A stretch of DNA of 64,000 bases from the NCBI GenBank assembly GCA_963782055.1, contig CAWAIF010000003.1:4032001-4096000 (forward strand), written 5' to 3'. Within the stretch, counting starts at the first letter, position 1; each line of letters opens with the position of its first letter. The DNA comes from an uncultured delta proteobacterium. Lineage in GTDB: Bacteria; Myxococcota_A; Polyangia; Polyangiales; Polyangiaceae. A program made the translations under genes and the position numbers. The notes beneath the pieces are model-generated. The model was not told the origin of the DNA and searched no databases. It worked only from the letters and a program-made list of their open reading frames with translations. Positions 11,813 through 44,987 of the stretch are shown here, piece by piece.

Positions 11813-11861
11813 CTCACTCCTCCTCGCCTCTCCCTGAAGGGAGAGGTGGGTGGGGGGTGAG
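11813..11861. repeat. REP-like palindrome / bidirectional hairpin between convergent genes
   Basis: Inner stem CCTCTCCCT-GA-AGGGAGAGG; outer CTCACTCC/GGGGTGAG; related copy at 33750-33787. Confidence 0.6.
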
Positions 11862-12944
11862 GTCGAAGCGCGACCGCGGGGCGGCGCACGCCTCGCTGAC
11901 GCTCTCCACCTGCACGGTCACGTACTCGACGCGGTAGGTCGAACGGATCTTCTCGCAGAGCGTGGAGGAGAGGCTGGCGCCTCCAGGAGTGCCGTACGCA
12001 TGGTCGTCCTCGGCGTGGACGTGGACGATGATGGCGTCGTGACCGGCCCCCAGCGTCCAGACGTGCATGTCGTGAACGCCGACCACACCCGGGTGCGCCT
12101 CGATCACCTGCCGGATGCCGTGCACGTCCAGGTGGGGAGGCGCCGCTTCCAGCAGGACCAGCAGCGCGTCGCGGAGCAGGCGCACCGCGCCCGCCACCAG
12201 GATCACCGCCACCACCAGGCTGGCGATCGGGTCCGCCGCCGAGGGACCGCCGAGGCGCAGCACGACGGCGGCCACGAGCGCCGCGAGTGACCCGAGCACG
12301 TCGCCCAGCAGGTGGAGCGTCACCCCTCGGAGGTTGAGCTCGTGCCCCGCCCGCGTCTCGTGCGCGTGCGCGTGCCCGTGCCCGTGCTCATCATGCTCAT
12401 GCCCGTGGTCCCCATGCCCGTGCTCGTGAATCACCCCGTGCAGCAGCCAGGCGCTCACCCCGTTCACCACGAGCGCCGCCACCGCCACCCACAGCATGAT
12501 CCCCACCTCGGGGTGCAGGTGCCCGCGCAGCGCCGCGATCGCCCGCCGCACGATCTCCGCGGTGGCGACGAGCACGAGCACCGCGTTGAAGGTGGCCGCC
12601 ACCGGCTCCGCGCGCCGCAGGCCGAAGGTGAAGCGCGGCGTCGGCCGCCGCACCGCCACGCGCATGGCGACCAGGCTCATGCCGAGGGCGAAGACATCCA
12701 TCAGCAGGTGGATCGCGTCGGCGATCAGGACGTTGCTCCGCGCGACGAGCGCGCCGGCGAGCTCCACGACGAAGAAGCCCGCGACGAGCACCACGACCAC
12801 GCCGAGGCGCCGCGCCTGGCGTGCCTCCTCCGGCGTGAACTTTCCCTTCGGCCCGGGTCGCGGACGCGCCGACAGCAGCGCGCGCACCTCGTCGTGGTCG
12901 CGCGCGGGTTGGTGCTGCGGGACGCCTTCCTGGAGCATCGTCAC
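11814..12944 (-). CDS. Cation diffusion facilitator (CzcD/ZitB-like Zn/Co/Cd exporter)
   Basis: ADAIHLLMD, FTFGLRRAE, His-rich loop, HLLGD, HDMHVW. Confidence 0.93.
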   Translation of the reverse strand: MTMLQEGVPQHQPARDHDEVRALLSARPRPGPKGKFTPEEARQARRLGVVVVLVAGFFVVELAGALVARSNVLIADAIHLLMDVFALGMSLVAMRVAVRRPTPRFTFGLRRAEPVAATFNAVLVLVATAEIVRRAIAALRGHLHPEVGIMLWVAVAALVVNGVSAWLLHGVIHEHGHGDHGHEHDEHGHGHAHAHETRAGHELNLRGVTLHLLGDVLGSLAALVAAVVLRLGGPSAADPIASLVVAVILVAGAVRLLRDALLVLLEAAPPHLDVHGIRQVIEAHPGVVGVHDMHVWTLGAGHDAIIVHVHAEDDHAYGTPGGASLSSTLCEKIRSTYRVEYVTVQVESVSEACAAPRSRFDLTPHPPLPSGRGEEE

Positions 12945-32842: not shown

Positions 32843-33775
32843 ATGACCCCGTCGATCCGCGCGATCCCCGCTGCGTGCCTCGCCGTGACGCTGGCCGCGT
32901 GCGCCAAGTCCCCACCGCCCTCGCAGCTCCCCGACGCGCAGGCCGCCATCGACCGCATGCGCGCCACGACCGAGTGCGCCACGGGCGTGCGCGCCGACGC
33001 GGCCATCGATCACTTCTCCGACAAGGGCGGCCGCGTGCGCGCCGAGCTGCTCATGCTCGCCTCGCGCCCCGCGCGGATCCGGATGGACGTGATGGCGCCG
33101 GTGGTGGGCTCGGTCGCCACGCTGGCGAGCGACGGCGAGCACTTCGCCCTCAACGACATGCGCAACAAGCAGTTTCTCGTCGGGCCCGCCTCGGCGTGCA
33201 ACATCGCGCGCATCACGCAGGTGCCCATCCCGGGCAACGTGCTGGTGAGCCTGCTGGTCGGGCGCGCGCCCGTGCTGGTGCACACGCCGCCCGGGCCGCC
33301 GGCGCTCTCCCTCGCCTGGAGCGGCTCCGGGTACTACGTCGTGGGGATCGACGGCACGCCCAGCGCCCGCGAGGAGATCCACCTGCAGGTGCACCCGGAC
33401 GACTGGAGCAAGCCGTGGCAAGAGCAGCGGCTGCGCGTCATCGACGTCGAGGTGTGGCAGCAAGGCCAGGAGCTCTACGACGCGGAGCTCACCGACTACC
33501 GCCCGACCGGGATGGCGGCGATCCCCGCGGCGAACCCGCTGGACGCGGTGCTCGGCGAGACGCCGCTGCCGCCCAGCGGCCCGCAGTGCAACGCCGAGCT
33601 CCCGCGACGGATCCACGTGAACGTTCCGGGCATGGGGGAGGACGTGCTCTTCCGGTACGACAAGGTCGAGCTCAACCCGCCGCTCCCGCCCAGCTCCTTC
33701 ACGCTGCAGCCGCCGTCCGGCGTGCCCGTCGCCGTCGTGACGTGCGAGGCTCACTCCCCGGCCACCTCCCGCTGA
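32843..33775 (+). CDS. Lipoprotein, probable LolA/LolB-like (DUF4292-like) fold
   Basis: Lipobox LAA-C; RPARIRMD; C-terminal NPPLPPSSFTL; fold inferred. Confidence 0.75.
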   Translation: MTPSIRAIPAACLAVTLAACAKSPPPSQLPDAQAAIDRMRATTECATGVRADAAIDHFSDKGGRVRAELLMLASRPARIRMDVMAPVVGSVATLASDGEHFALNDMRNKQFLVGPASACNIARITQVPIPGNVLVSLLVGRAPVLVHTPPGPPALSLAWSGSGYYVVGIDGTPSAREEIHLQVHPDDWSKPWQEQRLRVIDVEVWQQGQELYDAELTDYRPTGMAAIPAANPLDAVLGETPLPPSGPQCNAELPRRIHVNVPGMGEDVLFRYDKVELNPPLPPSSFTLQPPSGVPVAVVTCEAHSPATSR

Positions 33776-33787
33776 AGGGGGAGGTGG
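33750..33787. repeat. REP-like hairpin in the overlap of convergent genes
   Basis: CTCACTCCCC...CCACCTCCC-GCTGAAGG-GGGAGGTGG; similar to 11813-11861. Confidence 0.5.
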
Positions 33788-42370: not shown

Positions 42371-42374
42371 AGAG

Positions 42375-42448
42375 TCGGGGCGAGAGGATTTGAACCTCCG
42401 ACTCCTCGGTCCCGAACCGAGTGCGCTACCAGGCTGCGCTACGCCCCG
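42375..42448 (-). tRNA. tRNA-Pro(CGG), CCA not encoded
   Basis: CGGGGCG acceptor stem, TAGCGCAGCCTGGTAGCGC D-arm, CTCGG-TTCGGGA-CCGAG anticodon arm, GGTTCAAATCC T-arm. Confidence 0.97.
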
Positions 42449-42476
42449 TCGATTTCGCGCGCGAAACCGGGGCCGC

Positions 42477-42505
42477 GTTATGACGGGCCGCGGTGGACCC
42501 GTCAA
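42477..42505 (-). promoter_or_regulatory. Sigma70-type promoter of tRNA-Pro
   Basis: TTGACG-N17-CATAAC followed by a GC-rich discriminator. Confidence 0.6.
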
Positions 42506-42581
42506 CTGGAATCGGCCCCCCCTCGTGACGCACCCGCGGGGCATTTCCGGACGAATTGCCCGCGCTTAGGGCCCCCGCGCT

Positions 42582-42734
42582 TTCCTCTTGAAGGAGGTGC
42601 GACATGTGAGTACAAGGGCGCGGCTGCACGATTTATCGCACAGCAGCGTACCCCCTCGCTTCGCGGGCCTCGACCCCCGCGCTTGCCTACCTTCCGGCCC
42701 CTCTTCGCCACGCGGAGAGGGGCTTCTTTCGTTT
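42582..42734 (+). ncRNA. Candidate structured small RNA / start-stop minigene transcript
   Basis: AAGGAGGT-N5-ATG-TGA, two internal hairpins, anti-SD CCTACCTTC, + strand terminator; 5' end unknown. Confidence 0.5.
42697..42734 (+). terminator. Intrinsic terminator, + strand
   Basis: GCCCCTCTTCG-CCACG-CGGAGAGGGGC followed by TTCTTTCGTTT. Confidence 0.8.
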
Positions 42735-43418
42735 CTACGAGGACAGGTGCTTCTTGAAGAACGCCAGCGTCCGGTCCCAGGCGAGCTTCGCGTTCGCCGG
42801 GCTGTGCACCTCCGGCCGGGTGTCGTTGAAGAAGGCGTGGTCGGCGTCGTCGTAGACGTGCAGATCCATCACCTTTCCGGCGTCGTGGATCTGCTTCTGG
42901 ATCGCCCGAGCGGCCTCCGGCTTCACCCAGTCGTCCTTGCCGGCGACGTGCGCCATGATGGGCGCGGTCACCTTCGTGTAGTCTGCAAATTTCGGGTCGG
43001 GGATGCCGTAGAAGGCGGTCACCGCCCAGAGGTGCGGCACGTTGCACGCCGAGGCGAGGGAGAGCGCCCCGCCCATGCAGAAGCCCATCACCGCCACCTT
43101 GCCGTTGCTGCTCTCGTGGGCGCGCAGGTGCTCGGCCGCGCCGGCGATCTCGTCGAGAGCCTGCTTCCAGTCCAGCGCGCCCATCATCTTCGCCGCCTCG
43201 CCCGGGTCCTTCGTGGTCTTGCCGTGGTAGAGGTCCGGCGCGAGCACGCGGAAGCCCTCCTTCGCGAGACGCGCGGCCACGTCGCGGATGTGGTCGTTCA
43301 CGCCCCACCACTCCTGGATGAGCACCACCCCGGGGGTCTTGCCCTCACCCTCCGGGACGACGAGATCTCCCTGACACTTTTGGCCCGACGGCGTCTTGAA
43401 GTCGATGCGCATGGTCAT
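42735..43418 (-). CDS. Dienelactone hydrolase family protein
   Basis: IQEWWG, APDLY, GFCMGG, FYG, HAFFND. Confidence 0.94.
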   Translation of the reverse strand: MTMRIDFKTPSGQKCQGDLVVPEGEGKTPGVVLIQEWWGVNDHIRDVAARLAKEGFRVLAPDLYHGKTTKDPGEAAKMMGALDWKQALDEIAGAAEHLRAHESSNGKVAVMGFCMGGALSLASACNVPHLWAVTAFYGIPDPKFADYTKVTAPIMAHVAGKDDWVKPEAARAIQKQIHDAGKVMDLHVYDDADHAFFNDTRPEVHSPANAKLAWDRTLAFFKKHLSS

Positions 43419-44378: not shown

Positions 44379-44987
44379 ATGCCCCCCGAGCTCCCCGCAG
44401 TCCGCATCCTCATCGTCGACGACGACAAGGCCATCTGCGACTACATGCAGACCTTGCTCGAGGCCGACGGCTACTCCGTCAAGACCCTGAGCGACCCCAC
44501 CCTGGTCGAGCCGGAGGTTCGCCAGGGCGGCTACCACCTCATCATTCTGGACCTCATGATGCCCAAGCTGGACGGCATCGAGGTGCTGCGCCGCATCCGC
44601 AAGATCGACTCCGACATCGCCGTCGTCATCTTCACCGGGTTCCCCAACCTGGAGAGCGCGGTGGCGTCGATGAAGCTGGACGCCGTCGACTACATCAAGA
44701 AGCCCTTCAACGTGGACGAGTTCCGCGAGGTCCTCGGCCGCGTGATGCGCAAGAAGGGCCTGGCGCGCACGCCGGTGGAGCAGCTCCAGCGGTCCATCGG
44801 CGACACCATCCGCAACATGCGCAAGGAGAAGGACCTCACGCTCAAGCAGATGTCCCGGCGCACCGGGCTGAGCGTGTCGCTCCTGTCGCAGATCGAGCGA
44901 GCCGAGTCGTCAGCGTCGATCGAGTCGCTCTACAAGATCGCGCTGGCCCTCGACACGCGCATCCAGGACCTCTTCGGGGAGTTCTGA
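44379..44987 (+). CDS. digR: Response regulator with C-terminal XRE HTH (DigR-like)
   Basis: ILIVDDD, LDLMMP, KPF; IRNMRKEKDLTLKQMSRRTGLSVSLLSQIERAES; same architecture as Myxococcus DigR. Confidence 0.75.
   Translation: MPPELPAVRILIVDDDKAICDYMQTLLEADGYSVKTLSDPTLVEPEVRQGGYHLIILDLMMPKLDGIEVLRRIRKIDSDIAVVIFTGFPNLESAVASMKLDAVDYIKKPFNVDEFREVLGRVMRKKGLARTPVEQLQRSIGDTIRNMRKEKDLTLKQMSRRTGLSVSLLSQIERAESSASIESLYKIALALDTRIQDLFGEF

Follow-up and report, generated by a model that had tools for sequence, protein, structure and literature searches.

In E. coli reporters, a strong Shine-Dalgarno (SD) element followed by a 6-nt spacer selects the AUG in AUGUG, and on AUGUGA ribosomes reinitiate at the GUG in an RF2-dependent manner, as described in the accessible part of PMC9841429. 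For the small mRNA rreB, the accessible text of PMC5711450 reports a half-life that depends on the start codon (10 versus 37 min), and the portion of PMC5684412 at hand gives a prediction of three stem-loops for the sRNA Pxr of Myxococcus. Here we describe an AUG-UGA site that lies between genes in the genome of an uncultured soil myxobacterium of the Polyangiaceae (7.58 Mb, 72% GC, 97% complete). Positions refer to the window, the whole 64,000-nt stretch of DNA that was analysed. The gap at 42449-42734 is bounded by tRNA-Pro(CGG) and a dienelactone hydrolase (DLH) gene, each on the minus strand (Table 1). Because of its orphan terminator, its exceptional SD and its noncoding body, the element in this gap is best read as a stand-alone plus strand start-stop unit, that is, a lineage-specific, noncoding RNA of ~155 nt (about 42579-42734) whose start-stop site would be used by ribosomes and would probably control the fold or decay of the RNA itself. 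We put the probability of this reading at roughly 0.4, and we consider it likely that the element is the gene of a small noncoding RNA. An earlier interpretation made from the DNA letters (the sequence-only reading) had proposed a regulatory RNA of ~150 nt; the stand-alone start-stop unit survives from that proposal, and two of the identities offered for it, a CsrA sponge and an analogue of Pxr, do not.

Table 1. Features in and beside the gap between tRNA-Pro(CGG) and the dienelactone hydrolase gene, in window coordinates
Feature	Position	Strand	Evidence or detail
tRNA-Pro(CGG), left neighbour	42374-42448	-	ARAGORN; Rfam RF00005
Sigma70-type promoter of tRNA-Pro, outside the element	42477-42505	-	-35 TTGACG 42505-42500, 17 nt, -10 CATAAC 42482-42477
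GACG-N19-GACG pair	42527-42553	.	Fixed distance from tRNA -35 box
Weak candidate promoter	42544-42572	+	-35 TTTCCG, 17 nt, -10 TAGGGC (at 42567); inferred RNA start near 42579
Repeat copies 1 and 2, CCCGCGCTT	42559-42582 (starts 42559, 42574)	+	Sequence
Alternative sigma70-like pair TTGAAG-17-TACAAG	42588-42616	+	Overlaps SD and start-stop; RNA start would be near 42623
Shine-Dalgarno	42590-42599	+	Duplex of 10 bases with the 3' end of the host's 16S
AUG-UGA start-stop	42604-42609	+	ATG 42604-42606, TGA 42607-42609
Overlapping GTG start (AUGUGA)	42606-42608	+	Frame without stop before terminator
Long interrupted hairpin	42606-42659	+	Folding; 3' arm includes repeat copy 3
Repeat copy 3, CCCTCGCTT	42653-42661	+	In 3' arm of long hairpin
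Short GC hairpin	42662-42684	+	CGCGGG 42662-42667 / CCCGCG 42676-42681; ends in repeat copy 4
Repeat copy 4, CCCGCGCTT	42676-42684	+	End of short GC hairpin
C/U-rich anti-SD segment	42685-42694	+	Predicted to close three-way junction with SD
Intrinsic terminator	42696-42734	+	Stem 42696-42724, U-tract on + strand, stem end 10 nt from DLH stop codon
Dienelactone hydrolase (PF01738), right neighbour	42735-43418	-	Pfam E 2e-54

The left-hand portion of the gap is that of tRNA-Pro, with its promoter and the GACG pair, which the sequence-only reading had overlooked. With a position weight matrix (PWM) built from 18 tRNA/tmRNA promoters, the promoter of tRNA-Pro was the top minus strand site (8.7 bits), and both of its boxes align in all eight same-genus loci (the window, L211, L208, L008, L005, L212, L223 and L209). 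The GACG-N19-GACG pair stands at a constant distance upstream of the -35 box of tRNA-Pro(CGG) in the same 8/8 loci, window included, and forms the upstream boundary of the sequence that is conserved. This pattern has a frequency in the genome of about 8e-5 per position and was found only once in 23 other-genus loci (L216), 13 nt further out. The pair is likely a genus-specific operator. The slot beside tRNA-Pro is unstable: its genes differ from one genus member to the next, and several relatives have a plus strand gene there. At L225 (G046) it is filled by an rpsU-like gene, recognized by eye and not through a family search, that carries a U-tract terminator of its own. Among 30 related tRNA-Pro loci, a REC+HTH regulator was present within 1.5 kb in 13, an enoyl-CoA hydratase in 2 and DLH in none. 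The REC + HTH_3 regulator of the window (44379-44987) is 71-90% identical near tRNA-Pro(CGG) across the family (13/30 related loci) and is mostly divergent from the tRNA gene, with intervening genes that vary by lineage. At three unrelated loci (L103, L160 and L172), tRNA-Pro(CGG) also adjoins distant DLH homologues.

The right end of the gap holds the terminator, with a stem of 13 pairs, two of them G-U, a loop of 3 and a U-rich tail on the plus strand only. The sequence-only reading had drawn attention to a plus strand U-tract between two minus strand neighbours, and both the orientation of the neighbours and that of the terminator were borne out, the stem having 13 pairs when the two G-U pairs are counted. 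In the 2.5 kb scanned, one terminator-like site was found against 0.9 expected by chance. A scan of the genome gave 61 U-tract terminators, 21 inside called genes and 40 outside; of the latter, 19 lay no more than 150 nt after a same-strand gene, 13 lay farther from one, and 8, including the present terminator, had an opposite-strand gene upstream. On inspection, one of the other seven opposite-strand cases went with tRNA-Gly and another with a small ORF missing from the gene calls, and several of the distant or opposite-strand terminators belonged to tRNAs, to rRNA or to small ORFs that had not been called. Since 32 of the 40 follow a same-strand called gene and others were tied to one of these sources by inspection, U-tract terminators in this genome usually end a same-strand RNA. 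Of the 21 terminators that lack a same-strand gene close by, this is the sole one with AAGGAGG or AGGAGGT within 170 nt upstream. Another orphan-terminator unit was noted at G000:C3:4330350-4330690 (L236; G000 is the host genome), with an A/U-richer body, no Rfam family and BLAST matches in 0/5 genus genomes.

The SD core AAGGAGGT occupies 42591-42598 on the plus strand, and the AUG starts 5 nt later. Its duplex with the 16S 3' end (-15.8 kcal/mol) was matched or exceeded by 18 of 6353 genes (top 0.3%), these genes being rough calls made in the analysis and the element's features having been picked after the fact. The combination of SD and ATGTGA appeared in 0/100 shuffles of the window; genome-wide, a stop directly follows ATG in 1640 of 135,095 cases (1.2%), and 6 of 1926 called GTG starts are embedded in ATGTGA. 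The SD, the start codon and the immediate stop that make up a start-stop site are thus all present in the sequence. The sequence-only reading had described a perfect SD well spaced from ATG-TGA and an overlapping GTG at 42606 with no stop before the terminator. Its positions for the SD and ATG-TGA proved exact and the spacing normal, and the GTG frame was found to stay open for 399 codons, well beyond the terminator.

The body of the element is noncoding. Codon log-odds of the three plus strand frames over 43 codons were -18 to -21, a range reached by 0/4168 gene starts, although this control is partly circular, the genes having been chosen with the same score. No frame of the element had a Pfam match, and protein searches with two frames returned no homologue, only one low-complexity match. 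A minus strand ORF from the palindromic ATG had a negative score and was rejected. A SECIS hairpin placed after UGA requires a G in its apical loop; a selenoprotein that reads the UGA as Sec is unlikely, given a hairpin loop of UUUA that lacks G and a frame score of -21, though the genome does have tRNA-Sec. A type I toxin mRNA was likewise rejected, as no short hydrophobic toxin ORF follows the SD in any frame and no Pfam match was found. These results bear on the idea that the element is a relic, the ribosome site and terminator left by a small plus strand gene that has disappeared from a slot in which genes turn over rapidly. The variation of the slot among genus members, the rpsU-like gene with its own terminator in G046 and the occurrence of the identical 15-mer of SD plus ATG at the start of another, apparently ordinary gene in the same genome are in its favor. 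However, a relic is hard to match with a lack of codon signal in any frame and of protein matches for two frames beside an intact SD and terminator, and rpsU is whole elsewhere in the genome; we regard this explanation as quite unlikely.

No plus strand promoter above background was found in the gap with the PWM from the tRNA/tmRNA promoters. The candidate TTTCCG-17-TAGGGC, from which the ~155-nt RNA would start, reached only 2.6 bits; hexamers akin to its TAGGGC (TAGGAT/TACGAT) occur just beyond the second GACG in three genus loci (G001, G002 and G005). Sigma54 spacing (GG-N10-GC) was absent from the plus strand of 42450-42734. The top plus strand site in 42506-42695 was TTGAAG-17-TACAAG (5.0 bits), and it is the basis of a different proposal, in which a trans-acting sRNA of ~110 nt with three stem-loops (about 42623-42734), Pxr-like in layout only, starts from this pair. 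The SD and AUG-UGA would then lie inside the promoter and never be transcribed, and C/U-rich single strands would pair with the ribosome-binding sites of targets. An RNA that starts at 42623 is indeed predicted to leave 42682-42695 unpaired, and Pxr has also been predicted, in the accessible part of PMC5684412, to have three stem-loops. Against this, 24% of 300 random intergenic windows contain a site that scores equally, a target scan with two seeds found no gene start region better than did 6 shuffled seeds each and so no RNA target, and the precise spacing of SD and AUG would be due to chance. We consider such an sRNA unlikely. Eight of 21 read sets, listed by a search whose query was diluted by the tRNA it included, were compared, and none of the eight covers 42541-42711, which is no evidence either way. 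Two DNA runs from soil (X1 and X2) agree with the window in the flanks (42419-42524 and 42729-42892), an identity that extends to the flanks and not to the element's own letters.

Folding of the whole element, terminator included, gave z -2.73, with 0/200 shuffles as good, while without the terminator it gave z -1.45, with 13/200 shuffles as good, which is not significant; most of the structural signal therefore comes from the terminator. Both internal hairpins of the sequence-only reading were recovered, the short one (CGCGGG/CCCGCG) at 42662-42681 as described and the long one with a different apex, a 4-nt loop closed by 3 pairs in place of CGAT-TT-ATCG. That reading had further proposed that the SD is hidden by folding back of a downstream segment. 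In an RNA starting at 42582, the C/U-rich anti-SD segment, which contains CCTACCTTC at 42686-42694 (+), is predicted to pair with the SD with probabilities of 0.76-0.92. In all full-length forms the SD is predicted to be closed (unpaired probability 0.05-0.16), and to be open only on short nascent RNA. In an RNA with an upstream start the closing strand is repeat copy 2, which can pair with the SD together with the flank on its 3' side; in the other forms it is 42685-42694. The pairing thus stands as a prediction, but closure was as strong in 29% of 300 shuffles, indicating that masking of the SD is what the C-rich body gives anyway.

The long hairpin folds better as its minus strand copy (z -4.0 versus -1.9 on the plus strand), which brings in the possibility that there is no separate plus strand RNA at all. 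The hairpins would then be the 3' untranslated region and terminator of a minus strand enoyl-CoA hydratase/DLH operon, or an insulator before the tRNA promoter, and SD-AUG-UGA would be due to chance. The G-U pairs of the long hairpin and its better minus strand score, a strong hairpin that begins 10 nt past the DLH stop, the lack of a detected plus strand promoter and the lack of conservation all fit this explanation. It is weakened by the absence of a U-tract after the hairpin on the minus strand, by the finding that 14% of 115 random intergenic stretches match the minus strand score, which is thus not exceptional, and by the regions downstream of DLH homologues, none of which is alike; it also leaves the top-0.3% SD and the repeats described below unexplained. 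On balance we hold it to be somewhat unlikely.

Four copies of CCC(G/T)CGCTT, at 42559, 42574, 42653 and 42676, had gone unnoticed in the sequence-only reading, and three of them end a hairpin arm. Four near copies appeared in 0/60 shuffles and three exact copies in 0/200, and this is the only cluster of at least three copies among 291 occurrences in the genome. The CTT count of the element, 9 in 180 nt, is also in the top 0.25% among 123,606 intergenic windows, and its 4 CGCTT words are in the top 0.03%. This enrichment would be expected of a decoy RNA that binds a protein through a repeated CGCUU/CUU word, or of repeats that serve as DNA sites for a regulator, and a second CUU-rich RNA candidate in the same genome (L240, G000:C3:6625113-6625366) is likewise without BLAST matches, with 0/40 relatives in a plain search. 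That unit lies behind a sigma54-like promoter, whereas the present element has no sigma54 spacing on the plus strand. Moreover, most of each repeat is predicted to lie inside stems, the doubled motif showed no clear enrichment over a reversed control across 300 family genomes, and the partner protein is hypothetical, making a decoy or regulator site very unlikely. Membership in the genome's palindromic intergenic repeat was rejected, the terminator showing no more than a resemblance to it, with an E value of 9 when scored with an HMM built from 37 copies. This repeat, which resembles E. coli BoxC, has more than 50 copies genome-wide and a pyrimidine-rich arm, and it occurs in the window at about 11824-11864 and, weakly, at 33750-33786.

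A BLAST search of 60 relatives gave no convincing match, and one of 382 family genomes gave only low-complexity matches of 18-50 nt; a likeness to a locus in G018 (L077) is also of low complexity and was set aside. The sequence-only reading had suggested a BLAST of the region upstream of tRNA-Pro in relatives and had named two things that together would count against its proposal, the absence of a plus strand transcript ending near 42730 and a lack of conservation of sequence or structure in relatives; as to the second, no conserved element and no homologue were found. One-sequence covariance models, R1 (plus strand) and R2 (minus strand), which scored part of the candidates per genome, turned up no convincing match, whether in 60 relatives, in 6 genomes of the genus or in 140 of the order, and the best matches that were inspected were gene ends or generic hairpins. 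The element was carried by 0/30 related tRNA-Pro loci, and none of the regions downstream of DLH homologues (82 loci plus L018, from genomes and metagenomes) resembled it. Among these regions, that of one genome of the family is identical to that of Sorangium cellulosum So ce56 (L128 and L093), which points to Polyangiaceae as the family. A search with the doubled repeat as a pattern, searches of phages and plasmids, and searches of viral contigs with two exact patterns also gave no convincing homologue. The SD-ATGTGA pattern is present in 62 of 301 genomes, with 79 places outside the host genome; 29 of the 79 were inspected, and these had unrelated contexts, with a terminator within 300 nt in 0/29. 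As a positive control, the same BLAST found 6S RNA in 5/5 genus genomes at 76-83% identity. Two other small-RNA candidates of the host genome likewise had no BLAST match in relatives, and at the large distance of the nearest genomes the searches would miss an RNA that is young or changes quickly. No Rfam covariance model reached its gathering score over the element (best E 6), only tRNA passing, and 6S RNA, SRP RNA and tmRNA were rejected as identities because the host genome's copies of each lie elsewhere. In the part of the literature that was covered, no paper describes an RNA of this kind in the Polyangiaceae. In three Pyrinomonadaceae genomes (L098, L099 and L100), noncoding stretches of ~200 nt that resemble one another, with a terminator, face the homologous DLH gene from about 50-300 nt downstream; they match no Rfam family at cut-off and are a candidate for an undescribed RNA unlike the present element.

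Next to the stand-alone start-stop unit must be set the missing homologue, the missing promoter above background, a fold that is not significant without the terminator, SD closure that does not exceed shuffles, and the better minus strand hairpin. If this reading is right, transcription would leave the tRNA-Pro control region on its divergent side, and 30S subunits would load mainly on the nascent RNA, before the C/U-rich segments close the SD. Initiation at the AUG and RF2 termination at the UGA would then occur with zero elongation, and without elongation, occupancy would track the capacity for initiation and termination and not amino-acid supply. Some ribosomes might reinitiate at the overlapping GUG; because this frame has no stop before the terminator, they would reach the RNA end and need rescue by tmRNA, an established pathway for ribosomes at stopless RNA ends, and the RNA would be directed to rescue and decay. 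By analogy with the effect of the start codon on rreB, use by ribosomes would open the SD helix and shorten the life of the RNA. A more specific and speculative version, which we think unlikely, takes the AUGUGA of a free-standing RNA with AUG-UGA as its sole frame to be a ribosome-operated switch that would sense the capacity for initiation and termination without a peptide. In this version initiation and RF2 termination would open the SD helix and free the CGCUU arms, and reinitiation at the GUG into the stopless frame would destroy the RNA. A stand-alone RNA built on a start-stop site would be a minimal natural test of the effect of ribosomes on an RNA in the absence of a peptide, accessible to an in vitro assay with purified translation parts, with the limited weight that a single orphan locus carries.

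Several known classes of RNA were compared with the element. CsrB/RsmZ sponges are found where the genome has CsrA and carry many GGA motifs; the CsrA sponge offered in the sequence-only reading did not hold, as CsrA (PF02599) was not found in the 97% complete genome and 42582-42695 contains one GGA. A retron msr-msd adjoins a reverse transcriptase gene, and none of the 13 RVT_1 matches lies near the locus, so this identity was also rejected. Eight reverse-transcriptase matches on G000:C3 have equal scores and probably represent a single group II intron in several copies; a further match, at G000:C3:2273119-2273741, is split in two frames. The suggested Pxr analogue fared no better: no match to RF01812 was found at the locus or in the genome at an E value of ≤10 (150 of 2953 candidates scored), sigma54 spacing is missing from the plus strand, and there is no upstream NtrC-type two-component pair, the neighbor being tRNA-Pro.

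The likeness to Pxr (RF01812; PMC5684412) is that it too is a myxobacterial RNA of about 110-150 nt with three predicted stem-loops and a terminal hairpin; the accessible part of that paper reports it from Cystobacterineae, and the present locus has no sigma54 promoter and no pxrR/pxrK upstream. In type I toxin mRNAs such as aapA3, as far as the available text of PMC6733600 describes them, a strong SD is masked in turn by C/U-rich segments, with final 5'-3' pairing, as is predicted here, but in the present element no toxin ORF or antisense unit was seen and masking does not exceed what composition gives. The ambiguous AUGUGA/GUGUGA starts, for example that of narQ, share with the element a strong SD, a 6-nt spacer after AAGGAGG and the overlap of AUG, GUG and UGA; in narQ the GUG frame is a real gene (PMC9841429, accessible part), whereas here it is noncoding and has no stop before the terminator. 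The Start-Stop sites of E. coli yecJ and hslR likewise consist of a start codon and an immediate stop behind an SD-like sequence, and in the part of 10.1101/520783 that is available they are located within protein genes, out of frame, and adjust the translation of these genes, while here there is no host ORF. The element is not a member of the rreB/rreR group, as its SD duplex has 10 bases against the at least 16 nt required, and no conserved ORF of 14-18 codons and no peptide homologue were found; rreB itself, according to the accessible sections of PMC5711450, is complementary to 16S over 17 nt and bears a 14-codon ORF conserved across Bradyrhizobiaceae, compared with 10, a start-stop and no homologue found here. 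The same sections describe rreB and rreR of Alphaproteobacteria as stand-alone small mRNAs of ~160 nt beside a tRNA gene, as is the transcript predicted here, with a very strong SD predicted inside a stem, as in the present element, and with turnover tied to the start codon in rreB. Start-stop sites and AUGUGA reinitiation have thus already been described, in the accessible parts of these sources, within protein genes or at their beginning, and a stand-alone RNA around such a site would differ from them.
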